From contig JBGSIU010000036.1 of assembly GCA_041742375.1 (NCBI GenBank), positions 1 through 61,227 of the forward strand: a DNA stretch of 61,227 nt, in the 5' to 3' direction. Position numbers and translations under genes: made by a program. This document shows, piece by piece, positions 1,047-53,268 of the stretch. The notes below the pieces were generated by a model, which was not told the DNA's origin, searched no databases, and worked only from the letters and a program-made list of their open reading frames with translations. Source of the DNA: Patescibacteria group bacterium (GTDB lineage Bacteria; Patescibacteriota; Microgenomatia; JBGSIU01). Each line of letters begins with the position of its first letter. Position 1 is the first letter of the stretch.

Positions 1047-2396
1047 TTATTTTTTATAGAACATTCTGATAAATGTTCTTGTGACGACAAGTCCTGTAAA
1101 AAGCGATATTAGAACGCCAAGCGCCAGAGTTAAAGCAAATCCGCGGATCATGCCGGAAATGTTGAGAAATGACCAATTTAATGGATTAAATAAAATAAAG
1201 CATACCAAAAGCGTTGTGAAATTGGCGTCGCGAATTGAATCCCATGCTCGTCCAAAAGCCATTTCCATTGCGGAAACAGGATTTTGCCGTTTTTTTAATT
1301 CTTCTTTATATCTCTCAAAAATTAGAATGTTTGAATCAACCGCCATCCCGACCGAAAGAATAAAGCCCGCAATGCCAGGCAAAGTTAACGTGATGGGAAT
1401 TAATTTATAAATGGCAAGTGAAAGTACACCGTAAACTAAAAGTGATAAATCTGCCAAAAAGCCAAGACGGCCGTAAATCACAATCATAAAAATCGTTACG
1501 CAGCTTAAGCCGATAAGTCCACCGCGAACACTTTTATTAATAGAATCAACGCCAAGGGTTGGAGAAATCGTGTTTTGAGAAACCAGTTTAATTGGGACTG
1601 GAAGCGCCCCGGCGTTAAGTTGAGTGCTTAAACGTTTCGCATCGTCAAGCGTGAAATTTCCAGAAATAACTGCATTGCCGCCAAGAATTGCTTGATTGAT
1701 GCGGGGAGCGGACACGATTTGATCGTCTAAAAAAATCGCTAAAGATTTGCCAACATTATTTTTGGTGATATTTGCAAAAAACTGAGTGCCTTCTTTGTCA
1801 AACTCCAAAGATACTTGGGGAGATCCCGTGTTTTGATCGAAAACAACACTTGCCTTTTTTAAATTTTTTCCGGTGAGCTTGGTTAAAATTTTATAAGGAC
1901 CAAATTGAGGATCATTAGTTGCGGCTGACGGGCTTGCTTCTTCCAGACGAAAATTTAAAACTGCCGTTTTTCCAATCAAAGAAATTGCATCCTCCGTATT
2001 GGTTATGCCTGAAAGTTCCACAATCACTCTGAATTTGTCCTGAAGGCGTGAAGTCTGAATGTTAGGCTCGGCGACGCCAAATAAATTCACGCGCCTCTCA
2101 ATGTTGTCGCGCGTGGCATTGAGTGCGTCTTGGCGAGCGTTTTGCGCAATGCCTTTCATATCGGCTTCAAAAACAAGTTGTGAGCCGCCAGCCAAATCAA
2201 GACCTTTTTTAATTTCCAAATCACGTTTAAAATTTTGTCCTAAGAAAGTGAAATTAACATCTGGCGAAGAAAATGTTTGATAAACTTTTATTTTTCCAAT
2301 ATTAAATTTAATGCGCACATTTTTTGGGAAAGCAACAACGACAGCGAAGAATGTTAAAATGAGAATTAAATTAAAAACCCGTTGCGTTTTACTCAT
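1047..2396 (-). CDS. secD: protein-export membrane protein SecD
   Basis: 449 aa with an N-terminal TM segment, a periplasmic domain carrying GLDLAGGSQLVFEAD, and a C-terminal TM bundle containing GMAVDSNILIFERYKEE. Confidence 0.9.
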   Translation of the reverse strand: MSKTQRVFNLILILTFFAVVVAFPKNVRIKFNIGKIKVYQTFSSPDVNFTFLGQNFKRDLEIKKGLDLAGGSQLVFEADMKGIAQNARQDALNATRDNIERRVNLFGVAEPNIQTSRLQDKFRVIVELSGITNTEDAISLIGKTAVLNFRLEEASPSAATNDPQFGPYKILTKLTGKNLKKASVVFDQNTGSPQVSLEFDKEGTQFFANITKNNVGKSLAIFLDDQIVSAPRINQAILGGNAVISGNFTLDDAKRLSTQLNAGALPVPIKLVSQNTISPTLGVDSINKSVRGGLIGLSCVTIFMIVIYGRLGFLADLSLLVYGVLSLAIYKLIPITLTLPGIAGFILSVGMAVDSNILIFERYKEELKKRQNPVSAMEMAFGRAWDSIRDANFTTLLVCFILFNPLNWSFLNISGMIRGFALTLALGVLISLFTGLVVTRTFIRMFYKK

Positions 2397-2411
2397 GGAG
2401 CAAATTATAAC

Positions 2412-3104
2412 ATGAATTTATTAATAGCCACAAAAAACCCGGGCAAATTTAAAGAAATTAGCGCGTTTTTGCAAATGCCCGGCTTAAAATTATTATCGCT
2501 TTCCGACTTTCCAAAAGTAAAAGAGCCGGAAGAAACGGGCGCAACGTTTAAAGAAAATGCACGAATAAAAGCCGCGTATTATGCGAAAAAATTTAAAATT
2601 ATATCTCTTGCCGATGACGGAGGATTGGAAATAGAAATTTTTAATGGAGAACCGGGAGTGAAATCGCGGCGCTGGATTGACGGTGTGCATGAGGCGAGTG
2701 ATAAAGAGTTGATAGATTATTGTTTAGAGAAAATGAAGGGCGCTGGTAATAGAAAAGCAAAATTGACTGCGTGTTTATGTTTGTATATTTGTGGGGGCGG
2801 CCTTCCGCCCGCTTCGACGCGAGGCGAGCCGCCCATGGGCGCGGGAACCGCGCCCCTACAGTTATATGCCCAAGAATCAATTTCCGGCATCATTGCTGAA
2901 ACCCCTTCTGAAAATCGTTTCACCGGTTTTCCCTTTCGCAGCCTATTATGGATTCCAGAGATAAAAAAATTCTATAATGAAGATGAGCTGACATGGGAGG
3001 AGACAGTGAAGTATAATCATAGATACAAAGCGATCCAAGAAATCAAATATCAAATATCAAATATCAAATATCAAATATCAAAAATCAAAAATACAGGATG
3101 TTGA
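2412..3104 (+). CDS. rdgB: non-canonical purine NTP pyrophosphatase (RdgB/HAM1 family) carrying an in-frame GC-rich insertion and a repeat-encoded C-terminal tail
   Basis: MNLLIATKNPGKFKEI, EETGATFKENARIKA and ADDGGLEIEIFNGEPGVKSRRW are HAM1 signatures. The start is set at ATG 2412, although the ORF-track start is 2382. The last ~20 codons are translated from an (ATATCAA)n tract. Confidence 0.85.
   Translation: MNLLIATKNPGKFKEISAFLQMPGLKLLSLSDFPKVKEPEETGATFKENARIKAAYYAKKFKIISLADDGGLEIEIFNGEPGVKSRRWIDGVHEASDKELIDYCLEKMKGAGNRKAKLTACLCLYICGGGLPPASTRGEPPMGAGTAPLQLYAQESISGIIAETPSENRFTGFPFRSLLWIPEIKKFYNEDELTWEETVKYNHRYKAIQEIKYQISNIKYQISKIKNTGC
2790..2860. repeat. GC-rich palindromic element (GTGGGGGCGG...CGCCCCTACA family) inserted in-frame in rdgB
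   Basis: Two internal hairpins (gggcgg-cctt-ccgccc and ggcgcgg-gaa-ccgcgcc) with inverted ends tgtggggg/cccctaca. A GC-rich island inside an AT-rich gene. Confidence 0.8.
3041..3095. repeat. (ATATCAA)n heptamer tract, left arm of an AT-rich hairpin and translated as the rdgB C-terminal tail
   Basis: aatcaaatatcaaatatcaaatatcaaatatcaaaaatcaaaaata. A complementary ttgcattttgattta lies at 3211..3225, just before the serS start. Confidence 0.7.
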
Positions 3105-3111
3105 TTTTCCT

Positions 3112-3192
3112 GTCATCCCCGCGAAAGCGGGGATCCAGAGTCCTTATTAATTTTAGGAAGAACACTGGATCCCGGGTCAAGCCCGGGATGAC
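3112..3192. repeat. pair of inverted GTCATCC-hairpin elements
   Basis: gtcatccccgcgaaagcggggatccagag (3112..3140) and, in inverted orientation, ctggatcccgggtcaagcccgggatgac (3165..3192). Confidence 0.85.
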
Positions 3193-3231
3193 AAAAAGAG
3201 AAATCCCTTTTTGCATTTTGATTTAATTTAG

Positions 3232-4449: not shown

Positions 4450-4672
4450 AATCAAAACTCAAAAATCAAAGTTCAAAAATACAGATTAAAAATCAAAAAT
4501 ATATCTTGCGTGTCATTCCCGCCTCCGAGCGGGAATCCAGAGTTCTTAGAGCTCTTGTGGATTTTTTCATTTTTAATCTTTTATTTGTATTTTTAATTTT
4601 TGATGCTTCGACTTTGCTCAGCATCAATATTGAGCTTGTCGAATGTATTGATATTTGATTTTTGATTTTGTT
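4450..4672. repeat. composite nested hairpin region between serS and the methyltransferase gene
   Basis: Outer arms are (AAATCAA)-like at 4450..4500 and (TTGATTT)-like at 4647..4672. Inside are the GC hairpin gtcattcccgcctccgagcgggaatccagag (4512..4542) and a second hairpin, cgactttgctca...tgagcttgtcg (~4610..4642). Confidence 0.75.
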
Positions 4673-5877: not shown

Positions 5878-5924
5878 CTCTGGATTCCCGCTTTTCCTCA
5901 AGAGGACTATAGCGCGGGAATGAC
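5878..5924. repeat. GTCATTCC-family hairpin element, reverse orientation, immediately upstream of secA
   Basis: ctctggattcccgc-ttttcctcaagaggactatag-cgcgggaatgac. The terminal ggaATGac creates the ORF-track ATG at 5920. Confidence 0.8.
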
Positions 5925-5934
5925 AGCGAGGAAG

Positions 5935-26749: not shown

Positions 26750-26763
26750 GCACCTCCTCTTTT

Positions 26764-26843
26764 GTCATCCCAGATGAGGCTAACGACCTCAGTCTGGGAT
26801 CCAGAACACTGAGCCTGGATTCCCGCTCGGAGGCGGGAATGAC
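26764..26843. repeat. pair of inverted GTCATCC/GTCATTCC hairpin elements between rmlB and rmlD
   Basis: gtcatcccaga-tgaggctaacgacctca-gtctgggatccag is followed by the inverted copy ctggattcccgc-tcggag-gcgggaatgac. The last ATG is the rmlD start. Confidence 0.85.
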
Positions 26844-27753
26844 AAGGAGTTGTTGTTTTAGAAATTTATATATAAATATTTTAGCAACTGGTCTTTCTGG
26901 TTTAGTCGGCACCAGAATTAAGGAATTACTTCAAGATAAATATTCTTTCACCGATCTTTCTTTTTCAACAGGTGTTGATATCACAGATGAAAAAAAAGTA
27001 AGCGAAGCTTTTTCGAAAAGTGATGCCCAATGGGTTTTACACCTGGCGGCCTTGGCCGATGTTGATAAATGCGAGACTGAAAAAGAATTGGCTTATAAAA
27101 TTAATGTTTTAGGAACGAGAAATATTGCCCAGGCATGCAAAAAATTCAATAAAAAAATAATTCATATTTCAACTGATTTTGTTTTTTCTGGAGATGAATC
27201 GTCTGAATATTTTGAAGATAGTAAAAGAAAGTCATGTAATTATTATGCCGAAACAAAGATATTGGCGGAAGACGAGGTTATGAAAACTCTAGACAAAAAA
27301 AATTGGATAATCCTGCGAATCGCGCATCCATATAAAAAATTAGTTGAAGATGAACCAAAAAAATCGTTTTTCCAACGAATGTATGAGGTGTTAAAGAATG
27401 ATCAAGAATTAAAAGCGATTGAAGATTTTTACTCTCATCCCACATTTATTGACGATATTGCAAATTCCATAGATAAGCTGATAAAATTGAACTTTTCTGG
27501 TATATATCATTGTGTTGGAGATTCTTTTTTAAGCGGAGCGGAAGAAGCGGAAATAATTTGCGAAGTTTTTAATTTTGATAAAAGCCTGATTAAAAAGATA
27601 AAACTTAATAAGTTTTTTGAAGGGCGGGCAAAAAGGCCGCATCAGTTGAACTTAAATAATGATAAAATAAAAAAAGCAACGGGAATAAAATTGCATTCAT
27701 TTCGGGAAGGGCTGTTGCAGATTAGAGAGCAAATGAAAAAAATTAATTTCTAA
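26839..27753 (+). CDS. rmlD: dTDP-4-dehydrorhamnose reductase-like SDR
   Basis: ILATGLSGLVG, HLAALADVDKCE, HISTDFVFSG and YAETKILAE match the RmlD pattern. The only canonical start is the ATG inside the upstream GC hairpin. Confidence 0.75.
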   Translation: MTRSCCFRNLYINILATGLSGLVGTRIKELLQDKYSFTDLSFSTGVDITDEKKVSEAFSKSDAQWVLHLAALADVDKCETEKELAYKINVLGTRNIAQACKKFNKKIIHISTDFVFSGDESSEYFEDSKRKSCNYYAETKILAEDEVMKTLDKKNWIILRIAHPYKKLVEDEPKKSFFQRMYEVLKNDQELKAIEDFYSHPTFIDDIANSIDKLIKLNFSGIYHCVGDSFLSGAEEAEIICEVFNFDKSLIKKIKLNKFFEGRAKRPHQLNLNNDKIKKATGIKLHSFREGLLQIREQMKKINF

Positions 27754-35220: not shown

Positions 35221-35228
35221 GTTCTATT

Positions 35229-35255
35229 GTCATTCCGGCGAAAGCAGGAATCTAT
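35229..35255. repeat. GTCATTCC-family hairpin element
   Basis: gtcattccggc-gaaa-gcaggaatctat, with one stem mismatch. It lies between the GT2 stop (35220) and the GT39-like start (35283). Confidence 0.75.
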
Positions 35256-44448: not shown

Positions 44449-45393
44449 ATGACAAAAATTGCGATTATTATTGTTAATTATAATGGAGAAAAAGACACGA
44501 AGGAACTGTTAGAGAGTCTAAAAAGCATTAAAAAGGTAGATTTTGAACTTGATGTGATTATCGTTAACAACGATTTCCGTAGGGGCGGGTTTTTCCTGCC
44601 CGCCATTGCTACGCGCAGGCGTTGGCAGGCGGGCAACCCGCCCCATGGGGAGGGTCAAAAAAAGACCCCCCCCTACGAAATAAAGATAATTAATAACGAA
44701 ACAAATGTAGGTTTTGCACGAGCATGCAATCAGGGGATTCAATATTCTTTGAAAAATGGCTCAGACTATATTTGTCTTCTGAATAATGACACAGTAGTAA
44801 AACCAGATTTTTTAATTAATTTACTTAATATCTTTCAGATAGAAAAAGATTGCGGTATCGTGTCTCCAAAAATATATTTTTATCCCGGTCAAGAGTTCCA
44901 TAAATCGCGATATATAAAAGAGAATTTAGGAAAAGTAATTTGGTACGCCGGAGGAATATTTGATTGGGATAATATTTATGGAAGTCATCGGGGTGTGGAT
45001 GAAGTTGATACGGGTCAATATAACAAGGTACAAACTACCGATTATGCCACCGGTTGTTGCATGTTTATCAAGCGCAAAGTCATCGAAAAAATCGGAATGC
45101 TTGATGAAAAATATTTCGCCTATCTTGAAGATGTTGATTGTTGCGTCCGGGCAAAAAAAGCGGGGTATGAGATATATTATCAGCCTCATGCAGTAATCTG
45201 GCATAAAAACGCTTCGTCTTCCGGTGGTCCGGGTTCAAAATTGCATTATTTCCTTCAGGAAAGAAACAGAATATATTTTGGATTAAAATACGCCTCGTTA
45301 AAAACTAAAATACATTTGCTGATTAATGCAATTCAGTTTTTATTTTCCAGTAATTACAAAATTGCTCTATCTTTGATAAAAATGTCGCTATGA
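44449..45393 (+). CDS. GT2 glycosyltransferase (rhamnosyltransferase-like) with in-frame ~100-nt GC-rich insertion
   Basis: IIIVNYNGEKDT, NVGFARACNQG and LLNNDTVV. The segment FRRGGFFLPAIATRRRWQAGNPPHGEGQKKTPPY interrupts the VIIVNND...IINNE region. Confidence 0.8.
   Translation: MTKIAIIIVNYNGEKDTKELLESLKSIKKVDFELDVIIVNNDFRRGGFFLPAIATRRRWQAGNPPHGEGQKKTPPYEIKIINNETNVGFARACNQGIQYSLKNGSDYICLLNNDTVVKPDFLINLLNIFQIEKDCGIVSPKIYFYPGQEFHKSRYIKENLGKVIWYAGGIFDWDNIYGSHRGVDEVDTGQYNKVQTTDYATGCCMFIKRKVIEKIGMLDEKYFAYLEDVDCCVRAKKAGYEIYYQPHAVIWHKNASSSGGPGSKLHYFLQERNRIYFGLKYASLKTKIHLLINAIQFLFSSNYKIALSLIKMSL
44577..44677. repeat. GC-rich palindromic element (CCGTAGGGGCGGG...CCCCTACG) inserted in-frame in a GT2 gene
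   Basis: Inverted ends tttccgtagggg/cccctacgaaa, and internal hairpins ggcggg-tttttcct-gcccgcc, ggcggg-caa-cccgcc and gggtc-aaaaaaa-gaccc. Confidence 0.85.
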
Positions 45394-47060: not shown

Positions 47061-47816
47061 ATGATTTCTGCAATCGTGATCACAAAAAACGAAGAAAAAA
47101 TGATTAAAGACTGTTTGGAAAGCCTAAGATTCTGCGATGAAATAGTTGTGGTTGATTGTGGTTCGGTCGATGAAACACTGAGAATTGTACGTGAGTTTAC
47201 GGATAAAATTTATCAAATAAAAACGGATGATTTTTCCGAAATGAGAAATTTTGGTAAAGAAAAAGCAAGCGGTAATTGGCTATTATATATTGATGCCGAT
47301 GAACGAGTTAACGATTCTTTGAGGAAAAAAATACGTGAACTGGTTAATAATCCGAAATATGCGGGTTTTGAGATAAAAAGGAAGAATAATTTTTTGGGAA
47401 AGTGGATGGAATATGGCGGTTGGGAAAACGAGTATCTCTTAAGACTGATGCAAAAAGAAAAGCTCATTCAATGGTTTGGAAAATTGCATGAAACCGCGAA
47501 AGTTAACGGCAAAATTGGAAAAATAGACGAGGAGATTTTACATTTCTCGCACCGCAACATTTTTGATATGGTCGAAAAAACGAATAATTGGAGCAAGTTG
47601 GAAGCCGATTTGAGATTTAACAATCATCATCCGCAGATGACCGCGCCGCGATTTATAAAATTATTTATCAAAGATTTATTGACACGATTTTTCGTAAAAC
47701 AAGCACATAGAGATGGAGTTGTGGGAATTATTGAAGCGATTTATCAACCCTATAGTTTATTGATTACATATCTAAAGCTTTGGGAAAAACAAAACACCTT
47801 GTTATTCCGTGCTTGA
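47061..47816 (+). CDS. GT2 glycosyltransferase
   Basis: ISAIVITKNEEKMIKDCLESL, VVVDCGSVDET and YIDADERV. Confidence 0.75.
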   Translation: MISAIVITKNEEKMIKDCLESLRFCDEIVVVDCGSVDETLRIVREFTDKIYQIKTDDFSEMRNFGKEKASGNWLLYIDADERVNDSLRKKIRELVNNPKYAGFEIKRKNNFLGKWMEYGGWENEYLLRLMQKEKLIQWFGKLHETAKVNGKIGKIDEEILHFSHRNIFDMVEKTNNWSKLEADLRFNNHHPQMTAPRFIKLFIKDLLTRFFVKQAHRDGVVGIIEAIYQPYSLLITYLKLWEKQNTLLFRA

Positions 47817-47845
47817 CACAGAATCTATATAATTCTTTTTATCAT

Positions 47846-47872
47846 ATAGATTCCGGCCTGCGCCGGAATGAC
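47846..47872. repeat. GTCATTCC-family hairpin element, reverse orientation
   Basis: atagattccggc-ctgc-gccggaatgac. It is preceded by the 10-bp inverted repeat gaatctatat/atatagattc (47821..47853). Confidence 0.8.
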
Positions 47873-47883
47873 GGAAGGAAAAA

Positions 47884-48942
47884 TTGACAATAGGTCTATA
47901 TTCTCCATATTGGGATACATTGGGCGGGGGAGAGAAATATCTTTTTGATATCGTACGTTGTTTTCCCGAAGATAAGATCACTTTTCTAAGTGAAGATAGG
48001 GAAGTACTGGAGCAAGCAAAAGAGAGATTCAATTTTAAGCATAAACACATTCAAATTATTACTAATTTTAAAAAAGCTGACGGAAAAATAGATAAAAATA
48101 TTGTGCGACACATGGATATATTTTTTTATCAGTGTGATGGAAGCTTATTTTTTGGTCCGGCGAAAAAAAATATTCTTCTTATTCAATCTCCTGCACATAC
48201 GCCAAAGTTCAGCTGGTTGAACAAGTTGAAATCTCTAACTTGGCAAAAAATTGTCTGCAATTCTGATTTCACGGCACATTTTATCAGACAAAAAATGTTA
48301 GTAAGTCCAATTTTGTTAAATCCGGCGGTCATGCCGATCCCATCGCTTTTGAAAAAAAACACGATTCTTGCCGTGGGACGATTTTTTCCGCACCTGCACT
48401 CAAAAAAACAAGAAGTATTGATTGAGGTGTTTAAAAATATGTGCGGTTGTTATTCCAGCCTACAGTCCCCTTGGGGAGAAGGCTGGAATCTTATGCTTGC
48501 CGGTTCTGTGGTAGAAAGTGACAGGGAATATTTGAGTAAGATGAAAAAGCAGGCGGCGGGCTTCCCAATTGATTTTTATGAAAATGTGCCCTTCTCAAAA
48601 ATTACCGAACTGTATGGCGCGGCTAAAATTTTCTGGCATGCCGCCGGATATAGTGAAGATTTAAATAAATATCCGGAACGTGCCGAACATTTTGGGATTT
48701 CGACCATTGAAGCAATTTCTGCGGGTTGCTATCCCCTAGTTTTTAAAGCCGGCGGGCAAACAGAAATATTGAGTAATCATGATGAATTTTACTGGACAAC
48801 AAAAAAAGAATTGGTAAATAAAACCTTAGAATTGATTAATAACGGAGAATTAGCAATAAGCAATCTGAAAAAAATTCAAGATATTCCCCAACGCTACTCG
48901 TTTAATAATTTTAGGAAAAAACTTTATGAAATCATTGCGTGA
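47884..48942 (+). CDS. GT4 (GT-B fold, group 1) glycosyltransferase with in-frame hairpin-element insertion
   Basis: YWDTLGGGEKYLFD N-terminus and FGISTIEAISAGCYPLVFKAGGQTEIL, which is EX7E-like. TTG start. The CYSSLQSPWGEGWNL segment is encoded by the repeat. Confidence 0.75.
   Translation: MTIGLYSPYWDTLGGGEKYLFDIVRCFPEDKITFLSEDREVLEQAKERFNFKHKHIQIITNFKKADGKIDKNIVRHMDIFFYQCDGSLFFGPAKKNILLIQSPAHTPKFSWLNKLKSLTWQKIVCNSDFTAHFIRQKMLVSPILLNPAVMPIPSLLKKNTILAVGRFFPHLHSKKQEVLIEVFKNMCGCYSSLQSPWGEGWNLMLAGSVVESDREYLSKMKKQAAGFPIDFYENVPFSKITELYGAAKIFWHAAGYSEDLNKYPERAEHFGISTIEAISAGCYPLVFKAGGQTEILSNHDEFYWTTKKELVNKTLELINNGELAISNLKKIQDIPQRYSFNNFRKKLYEIIA
48449..48492. repeat. GTCATTCC-family nested hairpin element inside the GT4 CDS
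   Basis: gttattccagcc-tacag-tcccc-tt-gggga-gaa-ggctggaatctt. It matches 48944..48987 at 42 of 44 positions. Confidence 0.9.
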
Positions 48943-50905
48943 TGTCATTCCAGCCTACAGTCCCCTTGGGGAGAAAGCTGGAATCTTGTATCCTTTTCTT
49001 GTTTTTTTTATTTCTGTGCTTCTCTTCTGGAAATTTTTTATCCGCGGATTAATTCCTCTTCCGGCGGATACAATTGTGGGCATGTATCATCCGTGGCGCG
49101 ATCTATATGCCAAAGAATATCCCAATGGAATTCCATACAATAATCCTTTAATTACCGATCCGGTACGTCAGCAGTTTGTTTGGAAAAAACTGGTGCTCGA
49201 TTCATATAAAAAAGGCGAGTTACCCGTGGAAAATAAATATTCTTTTTCCGGTTATCCTCTTCTTGCCAATTTTCAAAGCGGCGCGTTTTACCCCCTGAAT
49301 TTATTATTTTTTATTCTTCCGTTTAATCTTGCGTGGGGAGGATATATTTTCCTCCAATTTTTTCTGGGCGCAATTTTTATGTTTGCATTTTTACAAAATA
49401 TATTAAGTAAAAATGCAAATCCTGAAGGAATTTCAACGACTGAAGGATCCTCTCATCAACAAATAGCATTCATTGGGGCCATCGTCTGGATTCTTTCCGG
49501 TTTCTGGGTTGCTTGGGCAGAGTGGGGGAATATTCTGCACACGGCCTTGTGGTTGCCATTAATTCTGTTAGCGATTGATAAAATTTCTATCAGCTTTGTC
49601 ATTCCGGCCCCGCAACGGAGTGCGGGGTCAACTCCAGCCGGAACCCAGAAAATATTCTTTTGGTCTTTTGTCTATCTTTTTTCACTCGTCTTTTCTTTCT
49701 TCGCCGGCCATCTCCAGACATTTTTCTATCTCTACATATTTTCCTTTTTTTATTTTTTCTACCGTCTACGTACCACCCCGCCTTTGGCGGGGCAGGCTCC
49801 CTACAAACTACGTACTTTTCTTCTATTTTTAATTATTAATTTTTCATTATTAATTATTACTATTCCTCAGTGGTATCCGACGTTTCAATTCATTCTCCAA
49901 AGCGCGCGTATCACCGATGTCAAAAACACTCTCACCCGTCCTGATTGGTTTATTCCATACCAACATTTAATCCAACTTTTTATTCCCGATTACTTTGGTA
50001 ATCCGGCAAAAGGTAACTACTGGGGTATTTGGAATTATGGTGAATTCTTATCATATATTGGTATTATCCCGTTCTTTTATGCAATGTTCTCAATTTTTCA
50101 ATCAATAAAAACAAGAAAAAATCTTTTTTGGGTGATTACATTATTAGTAGTTATACTTTTTGCTACAAAGAACCCGATTTCACAAATTCCATATCGCCTT
50201 CAAATTCCATTTTTCTCAACCGCCCAACCTTCACGCCTAATTTTCCTGTTAGACTTTTTGCTGATAATCTTTTTTTGTAAATCTCTTATGTTATTCCGGC
50301 GAAGGCCGGAATCTATCCTTATTTTCCTCACATTTTTATTTTTTTCCGTGATAGTTTTTTTTCAACCAGAATATCAACAAATTATTCTTCGCAATTCAAT
50401 CCAGCCAATTGCTATATTTATAATTTTTTCCCTGATTTCCCTCATTTCCCCAATTCCCCTTTTTCGAAAATTAGTCCTGCCAGCAATTTTCCTTCTCATC
50501 CTTTTTGACCAATCCCGCGTTTTTTGGCGCTACAACACTTTTGCGAGTGAAAAATATATCTTTCCCGAAACAAAAATCACGAGATTTTTGCGAGTTGAAT
50601 TAAAAAAAAGTTTTTTCAGGATTTCTTCTCTCGATGCGCGCATTATACCTCCCAATTTTTCCGCATATTACGAAATTCCGTCAATTGATGGTTATGATCC
50701 CTTATATCTGCAAACATATGCTGAAAAAATACGCGGCGGAAAAAGTACTGGTTTTAATCGCATTATTCAGCTTGATTCTCCCAACATCGAGCTTTATAAA
50801 GAATTAAGAGTTAAATATGTTTTAGCATTTACGGAAATTGATGGAGACGATTTTAAACTGGTTATGCAAGAAGGGAAGACTCTGCTTTATGAATTCAAAA
50901 AATAA
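48926..50905 (+). CDS. YfhO-like polytopic membrane protein (GT-C candidate) carrying four hairpin-element insertions
   Basis: DPVRQQFVWKKLVLDSYKKGELPVENKYSFSGYPLLANFQSGAFYPLN is a YfhO-type N-terminal region. It is a paralog of 53265..55232. Confidence 0.62.
   Translation: MKSLRDVIPAYSPLGEKAGILYPFLVFFISVLLFWKFFIRGLIPLPADTIVGMYHPWRDLYAKEYPNGIPYNNPLITDPVRQQFVWKKLVLDSYKKGELPVENKYSFSGYPLLANFQSGAFYPLNLLFFILPFNLAWGGYIFLQFFLGAIFMFAFLQNILSKNANPEGISTTEGSSHQQIAFIGAIVWILSGFWVAWAEWGNILHTALWLPLILLAIDKISISFVIPAPQRSAGSTPAGTQKIFFWSFVYLFSLVFSFFAGHLQTFFYLYIFSFFYFFYRLRTTPPLAGQAPYKLRTFLLFLIINFSLLIITIPQWYPTFQFILQSARITDVKNTLTRPDWFIPYQHLIQLFIPDYFGNPAKGNYWGIWNYGEFLSYIGIIPFFYAMFSIFQSIKTRKNLFWVITLLVVILFATKNPISQIPYRLQIPFFSTAQPSRLIFLLDFLLIIFFCKSLMLFRRRPESILIFLTFLFFSVIVFFQPEYQQIILRNSIQPIAIFIIFSLISLISPIPLFRKLVLPAIFLLILFDQSRVFWRYNTFASEKYIFPETKITRFLRVELKKSFFRISSLDARIIPPNFSAYYEIPSIDGYDPLYLQTYAEKIRGGKSTGFNRIIQLDSPNIELYKELRVKYVLAFTEIDGDDFKLVMQEGKTLLYEFKK
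48944..48987. repeat. GTCATTCC-family nested hairpin element at codons 7-21 of the YfhO-like CDS
   Basis: gtcattccagcctacagtccccttggggagaaagctggaatctt, read in a different frame from the copy at 48449. Confidence 0.9.
49598..49648. repeat. GTCATTCC-family nested hairpin element inside the YfhO-like CDS
   Basis: gtcattccggc-cccgca-acggag-tgcggg-gtcaactcca-gccggaacccag, translated as VIPAPQRSAGSTPAGTQ. Confidence 0.85.
49766..49815. repeat. GC hairpin insertion flanked by an 8-bp direct repeat inside the YfhO-like CDS
   Basis: ctacgtac-caccccgcctttggcggggcaggctccctacaaa-ctacgtac, with the core hairpin ccccgcc-ttt-ggcgggg. Confidence 0.8.
50290..50316. repeat. GTCATTCC-family hairpin element inside the YfhO-like CDS
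   Basis: gttattccggc-gaa-ggccggaatctat, translated as LFRRRPESI. Confidence 0.85.
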
Positions 50906-50923
50906 TAAAGATATAATCATTCT

Positions 50924-52455: not shown

Positions 52456-53268
52456 ATGCAAGTAAGTATTGTTATCCCAAATTACAATGGTCTTGAAAAT
52501 TTAAAAAGAAACCTTCCTAAAGTGATCGAAGCCACGGAGGGTTTTTCTGAAGAGACAGAAATTGTTGTTGTGGATGATGCGTCAAATGATAAAAGCGTAG
52601 ATTTTCTCCAGAGTGAACAGTTGAAGAGGTTGACGGTGATTCCCAATAAGAAGAATGTTGGTTTTGCAGAAGGTTGTAATGTTGGGGTAAAAAACGCTAA
52701 GGGAGAAATTGTAGTCCTCTTAAATTCGGATGTATACCCCGAGATAAACTTTCTTAAATATCTTATGCCGCACTTTCAAGATGAAAAAGTTTTTGCCGTT
52801 AGTTGTTTGGAGAAAACTTTGAATGAAGAAGATGAGATTATCGGAGAACGCGGCGCAGGGAAGATCTTTTTTAAAGACGGGCTTTATCAGCACTCGGCCG
52901 GTGATTTGAATTCACGTGAAACCGACTGGGTATGCGGTGGGTCCGGCGCTTTCAGGAGGAGTATTTTCCTCAAGCTTGGTGGATTTGACAAAAATTTCGC
53001 ACCTTTTTACTGGGAAGACGTTGACTTGTCATACCGCGCCAAAAAGGCAGGCTATAAATTGCTATTTGAGAAAAGATCAATTGTTTACCACAAACACACG
53101 GAAGGTGCAATTAAGAAAAAATATTCTAAACAACAAATTGAAAAGATATCGTTTGCAAACCAGCTGAAGTTCACCAGAAAGCATGTTAATTCAGTAAGCC
53201 AGTTTGCCGATTTTACTATTTTTCTACTCAAATTTTATTTGAAGAAAATTTTTGCGAAAGACATATGA
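52456..53268 (+). CDS. GT2 glycosyltransferase
   Basis: VSIVIPNYNG, VVDDASNDKS, NVGFAEGCNVG, LLNSDV and WEDVDLSYR. Confidence 0.8.
   Translation: MQVSIVIPNYNGLENLKRNLPKVIEATEGFSEETEIVVVDDASNDKSVDFLQSEQLKRLTVIPNKKNVGFAEGCNVGVKNAKGEIVVLLNSDVYPEINFLKYLMPHFQDEKVFAVSCLEKTLNEEDEIIGERGAGKIFFKDGLYQHSAGDLNSRETDWVCGGSGAFRRSIFLKLGGFDKNFAPFYWEDVDLSYRAKKAGYKLLFEKRSIVYHKHTEGAIKKKYSKQQIEKISFANQLKFTRKHVNSVSQFADFTIFLLKFYLKKIFAKDI

Follow-up and report, generated by a model that had tools for sequence, protein, structure and literature searches.

REP-type hairpin repeats as probable in-frame insertions in a YfhO-family glycosyltransferase gene from a hot-spring metagenome

The DNA analyzed here is the contig JBGSIU010000036.1 (61,227 nucleotides; the whole stretch is called the window below), which was obtained from a hot-spring metagenome at a depth of about 10x and has a GC content of about 36%. 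On its forward strand lies an open reading frame (ORF) encoding a protein of 659 amino acids related to YfhO, and the frame stays open through four GC-rich segments, named ins1 to ins4. An earlier note on this locus had described the segments as four hits of one hairpin element and one of them as bracketed by a target-site duplication. All four segments are present, each with a hairpin, within 1 nt of the positions given in that note, ins4 being the one that was off by one base. The gene and its segments are the following.

48926-50905, plus strand: host gene of the YfhO family, recognized by its PF09586-containing homologs, invariant columns, AlphaFold2 model, and conserved start.
48943-48988, plus strand: ins1, a long-loop copy of the hairpin repeat described below, with a TGTC tag, an 8-bp outer stem ATTCCAGC/GCTGGAAT, an inner hairpin TCCCC-TT-GGGGA, and the tail CTT.
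49597-49648, plus strand: ins2, a long-loop copy with a TGTC tag, an outer stem ATTCCGGC/GCCGGAAC (7 of 8 pairs), an inner hairpin CCCCGC-N8-GCGGGG, and the tail CCAG.
49775-49798, plus strand: ins3, a 21-nt in-frame insertion with the hairpin CCCCGCC-TTT-GGCGGGG (49776-49792), encoding PPLAGQA.
50289-50316, plus strand: ins4, a short-form copy with a TGTT tag, the stem ATTCCGGC/GCCGGAAT, the loop GAAG, and the tail CTA, read as LFRRRPES.

The gene is intact, and judging from its sequence and its structural model, the protein is predicted to be a YfhO-family membrane glycosyltransferase of the GT-C type. A homology search yielded 1892 homologs at E ≤1e-10 (best about 1e-145), the majority of which carry PF09586 (YfhO). 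Those with names are Levybacteria and other Microgenomates, with 41-47% identity to the window protein, and on these names the host would be a Microgenomates-like bacterium of the candidate phyla radiation. Identity to the six closest orthologs (P0002-P0007) is 58-65%. In an alignment of 69 sequences, 37 of 37 invariant columns are retained in the window protein. It gave no Pfam match at E ≤0.001, and of those six orthologs, P0003, P0005, and P0007 likewise lack the precomputed Pfam match. The AlphaFold2 model has a predicted template modeling score (pTM) of 0.90, and its top fold matches in the PDB are the GT-C enzymes ArnT (5f15, E 5.7e-4), STT3, and AglB. In the related loci L001, L002, and L005 the ATG start is kept, and so is the overlap of 17 nt with the upstream gene, GT1. 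Rfam and tRNA scans of the window gave no matches.

At a depth of only about 10x, the segments could be suspected to be products of faulty assembly or chimerism in a low-coverage metagenome. We regard this as extremely improbable: contigs of the source run from an independent assembly (Logan) span 48400-50135 and 50117-50921 with 0 differences, the frame is kept through four segments, and related genomes carry the same repeat family.

The gain contributed by each segment was judged by a codon alignment with five ortholog DNAs and by gap occupancy over 67 homologs, P0003 being compared as protein only. The ins1 hairpin (ATTCCAGC/GCTGGAAT, 48947-48984) encodes the peptide VIPAYSPLGEKAGI; residues 8-20 (48947-48985) are missing in the 67 homologs (occupancy 0.01), which corresponds to a gain of 39-42 nt. 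The ins2 hairpin (ATTCCGGC/GCCGGAAC, 49601-49644; DNA fold -13 kcal/mol, z -2.7) encodes VIPAPQRSAGSTPAGTQ and amounts to a net gain of 12-13 codons (about 39 nt) relative to P0002, P0004, P0006, and P0007. At ins3, whose hairpin has a 7-bp stem, residues 285-291 alone (about 49778-49798, 21 nt) are missing in the 67 homologs (occupancy 0.01). The ins4 hairpin (ATTCCGGC-GAAG-GCCGGAAT, 50293-50312; DNA fold -9.2 kcal/mol, z -4.2) lies in a variable loop in which the peptide LFRRRPESI is encoded by 50291-50317; the orthologs exceed the window protein in length there, and a net gain is not demonstrable. Against the paralog at 53265, where all four segments had earlier appeared as extra, the surplus is clear for ins1 and ins2 and not for ins3 and ins4. 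The window as a whole contains 17 perfect GC-rich hairpins, against 3.25 +/- 2.2 in Markov shuffles, an enrichment of about five-fold.

Three of the four segments, ins1, ins2, and ins4, share one oriented form, (T/C)GT(C/T)-AT(T/C)CCnnn-loop-nnnGG(A/G)AT-C(CA/TA/TT), so that the description as four hits of one element holds for these three and fails for ins3, which is unrelated to them. At least 13 copies of the family lie in the window: three intergenic dimers with the tags outward, three singlets near gene ends, and four singlets inside genes. Of the last, GT1 holds one and the YfhO gene three; these two envelope-glycosylation genes are adjacent. The copies outside the YfhO gene are listed here.

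48448-48493, plus strand: sister copy of ins1 inside the GT1 gene (47884-48942), with 2 mismatches in 46 nt, read in a different frame as the peptide YSSLQSPWGEGWNL.
47800-47873, no single strand: intergenic tags-outward dimer at the GT2/GT1 junction, made up of 47800-47828 (plus) and 47846-47873 (minus).
3111-3193, no single strand: intergenic tags-outward dimer made up of 3111-3138 (plus) and 3165-3193 (minus), both exact matches to the published SRM pattern given below.
26763-26844, no single strand: intergenic tags-outward dimer, the first member of which is long-loop; fold -23.3 kcal/mol, z -5.5.
4511-4540, plus strand: lone copy in the intergenic space downstream of the gene for seryl-tRNA synthetase.
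5880-5925, minus strand: long-loop copy with the ins1 inner module, the inner stem being TCCTC/GAGGA, not TCCCC/GGGGA.
35228-35255, plus strand: single copy beginning 8 nt past the stop of a GT2 gene.

The 8-bp stem opens with AT(T/C)CC in all 13 family copies, and the palindrome is followed directly by C in all 13. The tag is GTC in 10 of 13 and GTT in the other three (ins4, the GT1 copy, and the 47800 copy), and the base before it is T in 12 and C in one (47873, minus). The tail reads CCA in seven copies and CT(A/T) in six. Loops measure 4-6 nt in nine copies and 18-28 nt, with a nested hairpin, in four (5884, 26767, 48452/48947, 49601). The dimer at 3111-3193 folds into a three-way structure (-22 kcal/mol, z -5.3). 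Long forms are found elsewhere as well: the full ins2 form recurs in L001 (2076-2119), and a contig of run X3 from the same study repeats its outer stem and inner hairpin (49594-49628) with 5 mismatches. The copies at 5884-5921 (minus) and 48947-48984 (plus) have in common the inner module CTA(C/T)AGTCC(C/T)CTTG(G/A)GGA(G/A)AA with one compensatory stem change, which hints that the inner hairpin of the long-loop forms may itself be constrained. At the GT2/GT1 junction (47800-47884), the dimer fills the interval and the C-terminus of GT2 is rewritten; in L001 and L002 the two genes overlap there by 4 nt. GT1 apparently begins at TTG.

The sister copy in GT1 lies 495 nt upstream of ins1 and adds 10 codons relative to L001, L002, and L004, and 5 relative to L005. 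The recurrence of the 46-nt ins1 with 2 mismatches, in another gene and another frame, together with family copies between genes, bears out the earlier view that these segments arose by insertion and not by slippage. An origin in place, through slippage, quasi-palindrome correction, or template switching at replication with no unit inserted, would account for the lack of net length gain at ins4 and at the peptide SFSRRRES of P0003, for the singleton nature of ins3, and for the differing GC-rich hairpins at one loop in the window, in L004, and, by peptide, in P0003. It does not explain why the copies share 24-46 nt including a non-palindromic tag and tail, why ins1 and its sister differ at 2 of 46 positions in different frames, or why one 27-nt motif occurs across many phyla. 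For the segments together we therefore consider it unlikely; it could apply to ins3 only.

The minimal intragenic units (GTC, palindrome, and C) measure 24, 42, 42, and 48 nt, that of ins1 being 42 nt. All four have the same orientation as the gene, none contains a stop in any sense frame, and three reading frames are used over the four copies. A further explanation, that the segments are selected functional loop peptides and the hairpins incidental, draws on the fact that every segment lies in a loop of an intact conserved protein. However, the same DNA unit read in three frames gives unrelated peptides, which argues against selection on the peptides; identical units also occur between genes, the segments are missing in 67 homologs, and model confidence is low at ins1. 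We judge this explanation highly improbable.

Six of the 13 copies lie within 47800-50316 (Poisson probability about 2e-5 per 2.5-kb window), and this clustering is real. For the three copies in the YfhO gene, p is about 0.009 before correction for 51 genes. Targeted insertion into the YfhO gene, which had been raised as one possibility, finds no support here; what is seen instead is a regional clustering.

The 8-bp direct repeat at the third segment had been put forward as direct evidence of insertion.

49766-49815, plus strand: two CTACGTAC copies, identified by codon alignment with five orthologs and the P0003 protein as pre-existing L-R-T codons.

The repeat itself is perfect and indeed brackets ins3, with CTACGTAC at 49766-49773 and again at 49808-49815, 42 nt from start to start. 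Each copy encodes L-R-T, and both triplets align to residues of orthologs that lack the hairpin: the window reads LRTT[PPLAGQA]PYKLRT, P0003 LRTTNYVLRT, P0004 VRNTKYVIRN, and P0007 FRGKDNKLRA. The hairpin-free orthologs thus carry both halves, seven codons apart, in place of the one ctacgtac that the earlier note had expected; by that note's own criterion, the duplication reading fails. In P0004 the DNA is TACGTAATACG-AAATACGTAA-TACGTAATACG, a perfect direct repeat of 11 nt whose copies are 21 nt apart, without any hairpin. Since both L-R-T halves are present in hairpin-free orthologs, the CTACGTAC repeat is older than the hairpin, which added 21 nt between them; the gain is 7 codons (residues 285-291), not the 42 nt or 14 codons that had been counted for repeat plus insert.

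Bacterial MITEs (miniature transposable elements with inverted repeats) make target-site duplications. Insertions of such transposons, with the CTACGTAC repeat as the footprint of a 34-nt element, would explain why the repeat is perfect and brackets a hairpin, and a flanking repeat of at least 8 nt is found at 0.9% of random sites. Yet at the other 16 of 17 hairpins in the window the same search found no flanking repeat that reaches 6 nt, and with 17 hairpins tested the chance of one such match is about 14%, so that the single flanking repeat is not significant. The window contains 198 direct repeats of 8-mers at 20-70 nt spacing, 46 of them with three or more G/C. Added to the seven-codon gain, the L-R-T triplets of the orthologs, and the P0004 repeat, ins3 is a single copy and so defines no repeated element. 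A target-site duplication is therefore very unlikely, and the alignment argues that the CTACGTAC repeat is ancestral coding sequence. The segment ins3 itself is a separate, unclassified singleton insertion outside the family of ins1, ins2, and ins4: neither the window nor 157 fetched loci yielded a second copy. It could belong to a family with members outside the window, or it could have arisen by a local event.

The loop that holds ins2 contains other GC-rich hairpins elsewhere: in L004, 1971-1986 reads CGGACC-AGGA-GGTCCG. P0003 has SFSRRRES at about residue 225, a peptide typical of the CGTC-tagged repeat class introduced below when read in the second frame; it comes with no length gain. From these comparisons the loop appears to be a recurrent landing or tolerance site. 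Among the 120 YfhO homologs listed, a search for the diagnostic peptides of that class gave no convincing new cases, and its pattern missed the P0003 SFSRRRES.

Loop locations and loop tolerance had been anticipated from the sequence, and the model agrees, with all four segments forming non-helical stretches beside or between helices.

Residues 8-17, ins1: N-terminal tail before the helix 18-33, with a predicted local distance difference test score (pLDDT) below 50.
Residues 224-237, ins2: loop between the helices 210-223 and 238-259.
Residues 284-292, ins3: loop between the helices 263-283 and 293-325.
Residues 458-463, ins4: loop between the helices 435-457 and 464-478.

With the N-terminus taken to be cytoplasmic, as it is in GT-C enzymes, the helix count leads us to infer a cytoplasmic position for all four segments. 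The short loops assigned to the inside are rich in K and R, which fits the cytoplasmic side.

The form shared by ins1, ins2, and ins4 was compared with published repeat classes, of which the first are repetitive extragenic palindromic (REP) sequences with a CGTC tag. These have an 8-9 bp stem opening with A-T pairs, a 4-5 nt loop, and a CCA tail, and occur mostly as head-to-head (HH) dimers, with the tags outside (PMC3733652). They include intragenic units, and no transposase is known for them (Di Nocera et al. 2013, PMC3733652). The subclass CGTC-1 equals dRS3 of Neisseria and the Rickettsia palindromic element RPE-6 of Rickettsia conorii, and CGTC-4 equals RPE-4 (PMC3733652). A 2025 paper on Ssn nucleases gives the 28-nt NTS consensus CGTCATTCCCGCGMAVGCGGGAATCYRG and a degenerate pattern for the Ssn-related motif (SRM; PMC11893778), HGTCWYN(0-2)YYVSBRHN(0-5)WNVSBRGN(0-2)RNCYNB. 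According to that work, a small nuclease of the GIY-YIG type binds the NTS hairpin in its single-stranded form and cuts it, the C after the palindrome is the most important base for SsnA binding, the three bases before the palindrome are critical for cleavage, and the loop can be extended without loss of cleavage (PMC11893778). The strict SRM pattern has three exact matches in the window, compared with 0.07 +/- 0.26 in 100 shuffles. The remaining copies, all those inside the YfhO gene among them, fail only by loop length or by a GTT tag. Measured against the 28-nt NTS consensus, four copies have 3-5 mismatches, and ins4 differs at 5 of 28 positions.

To learn about the wider distribution, one genome per species was scanned with the motif GTCATTCCNGC-N3-6-GCNGGAATCTAT. 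The exact motif was found in at least 120 loci from Bacteroidota, Proteobacteria (including Rickettsia, Legionella, and Coxiellaceae), Planctomycetota, Chloroflexota, and Nitrospirota. Among the matches listed, groups of the candidate phyla radiation (CPR) were represented by Saccharibacteria, Berkelbacteria, Peribacteria, Collierbacteria, and Paceibacteria. About 8% of the scanned elements lie inside long open frames, for example, in a Saccharibacteria ORF reading VIPAQAGI. The exact bacterial motif is also present at 522-548 of L059, from a Bathyarchaeota metagenome-assembled genome (MAG), where contamination of the MAG is possible.

Ten of the 120 loci listed carry a GIY-YIG gene (PF01541, about 95 amino acids) within the 8-kb locus. 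The hairpins flank the gene at 10-100 nt in most of the ten; L135 has them on one side only, and L144 contains only two fragments of about 48 amino acids. Small Ssn-like genes beside the 24-nt hairpins are found in L062, L077, L104, L107, L110, L111, L112, L135, and L149. The adjacency of gene and hairpin reproduces the published association between Ssn and its repeats for exactly this subfamily. Between distant phyla the Ssn-like proteins share 42-68% identity, and their database homologs lie mostly on very short contigs; both would fit a mobile or repeat-flanked gene. With an Ssn-like protein as query, a protein database gave at least 7984 matches, indicating a very large family; its best 120 matches contain none named as CPR, and the few that are named are Ignavibacteria. 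No GIY-YIG gene was found in 37 Microgenomates-type loci.

Taken together, our results suggest that ins1, ins2, and ins4 are probably dispersed, oriented hairpin repeats of the REP type (the CGTC-REP/dRS3/NTS/RPE-6/SRM class), ins3 being a separate event. In this scenario, non-autonomous copies would land anywhere, without target duplication, and selection would retain only those that preserve the frame, bring no stop, and lie in short cytoplasmic loops or tails. The copy ins1, whose tag begins with the base directly following the GT1 stop codon (48940-48942), would occupy the usual REP site just past that stop; because GT1 and the YfhO gene overlap by 17 nt, it lies inside the latter and would become its codons 7-20. 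For their spread, the repeats would depend on the hairpin in single-stranded form and on an enzyme that acts in trans from a gene elsewhere; the likeliest candidate for this enzyme would be an Ssn-type GIY-YIG nuclease. That such a nuclease takes part in the biology of these repeats is itself a tentative proposal, and more doubtful than the assignment of the repeats.

Several observations weigh against the REP-type assignment. An empty-site allele was not found in one run of about 10x analyzed as contigs, and insertion is inferred from orthologs that are 58-65% identical. The tag is mostly TGTC, with GTT in three copies, in place of the published CGTC, and the loops of 18-28 nt are longer than the published 4-5 nt. 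The absence of a length gain at ins4 and at the P0003 SFSRRRES in the ins2 loop means that a history of insertions only misfits some copies; accompanying deletions, or the unreliable alignment of variable loops, may be the reason. No candidate for a mobilizing gene, whether GIY-YIG, RAYT, or other, was found in the 61-kb window, the remaining genome lying outside the analysis; for a cognate ssn gene (a GIY-YIG of type cd10448, about 95 amino acids), the window was searched by a motif scan and by tblastn with three Ssn-like proteins.

The YfhO gene also contains a tract of about 220 nt (49330-49560) with 93-97% DNA identity to the ortholog in L004 (about 1730-1960), which comes from another sample; over whole genes the identity is about 67-72%. 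The tract resembles the product of recombination or gene conversion, stops about 40 nt before ins2, and takes in a fifth lineage-variable in-frame segment, SKNANPEGISTTEGS (49406-49450, 45 nt), which forms no hairpin and contains an imperfect tandem repeat of 18 nt. This segment is found in the window, P0002, P0003, and P0005, is missing in P0004 and P0006, and forms a low-pLDDT loop. It is conceivable, if quite unlikely, that the hairpins in this envelope-glycosylation locus serve as signals for single-strand DNA restriction or as recombination boundaries, as NTS does in Neisseria, and intragenic copies may then be kept for shaping which tracts are exchanged. The hints to this are the six of 13 copies in 2.5 kb, the L004 tract that ends near ins2, and the L004 hairpin at the same loop.

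Two genes at a distance from the YfhO locus carry inserts of another type. In a Ham1-family gene (2382-3104), whose Pfam match covers 210 residues against a 184-position profile, the stretch 2783-2867 is a GC-rich insert that keeps the frame and measures about 80 nt, GGGLPPASTRGEPPMGAGTAPLQ; its minus strand contains a GTAG-tagged REP hairpin, GTAG-GGGCGCGG-TTC-CCGCGCCC, and a second hairpin. A GT2 gene (44449-45393) carries at 44575-44680 an in-frame insert about 100 nt long (fold -38.6 kcal/mol, z -7), in which two GTAG-tagged hairpins with tags outward stand in a REPIN-like arrangement; the insert interrupts the N-terminal part of the glycosyltransferase domain. A kinship of ins3 with these GTAG-type inserts and with other GC-rich inserts was considered and rejected, since the alignment scores were within the shuffle range.

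If the REP-type assignment of ins1, ins2, and ins4 is correct, the CGTC-REP class, known mainly from Proteobacteria and a few other phyla, now extends to a small-genome, CPR-like bacterium, and one membrane enzyme tolerates three copies and another hairpin, all in short, apparently cytoplasmic loops. In-frame REP and RPE insertions are already known; the novelty lies in the lineage of the host, in the variants with long loops, and in the presence of three copies in one ORF. Such repeat units give rise to recurrent peptides in predicted proteins (VIPAxAGI, SF/LFRRRxES, HS..GN), can lower the scores of domain models (the window YfhO is without a Pfam match, and homologs have one), and can pass for target-site duplications or protein motifs. 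What is known about how repeats of the CGTC-REP type move is unchanged by this work. An ssn gene flanked by TGTCATTCC hairpins in the same genome would support the nuclease mechanism.

Elements of the RPE-1 type are about 100-150 bp long. Described as selfish DNA within genes that encode proteins (cited in PMC3733652 and PMC10969869), they resemble the window units in being palindromic repeats in frame, in tolerant parts of proteins whose genes are still functional, and differ in being longer palindromic insertions (PMC3733652), the window units measuring 24-48 nt. GTAG-tagged REPs and REPINs with RAYT transposases (PMC3116915, PMC3733652) likewise consist of hairpins, form inverted dimers, and make no target-site duplication, whereas the tag of the family in the YfhO gene is GTC and not GTAG, and no RAYT gene was seen in the window. 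MITEs such as Correia/NEMIS and RUP (PMC10969869) are also small non-autonomous repeats in or beside genes, but they measure 70-300 bp and have terminal inverted repeats (PMC3733652); these repeats, like a target-site duplication, are absent in the window family.

With the NTS/SRM repeats, the window family has in common the match to the consensus, the C after the palindrome, and oriented repeats clustered around particular genes; it differs in that the window is without an ssn gene and in that the published NTS copies lie around genes, not inside them (PMC11893778). Relative to CGTC-REPs, the differences are the mostly TGTC tag, the CTA/CTT tail in six copies, the nested-hairpin loops of 18-28 nt in four, the three copies in one ORF, and the apparently CPR (Microgenomates-like) host from a phylum outside the list of PMC3733652. 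Shared with the CGTC-REPs are a tag ending in GTC in 10 of 13 copies, an 8-bp stem opening with AT, a loop of 4-5 nt in the short forms, and the CCA tail in seven copies, as well as the prevalence of tags-outward intergenic dimers, positions near the 3' ends of ORFs, and in-frame intragenic units.

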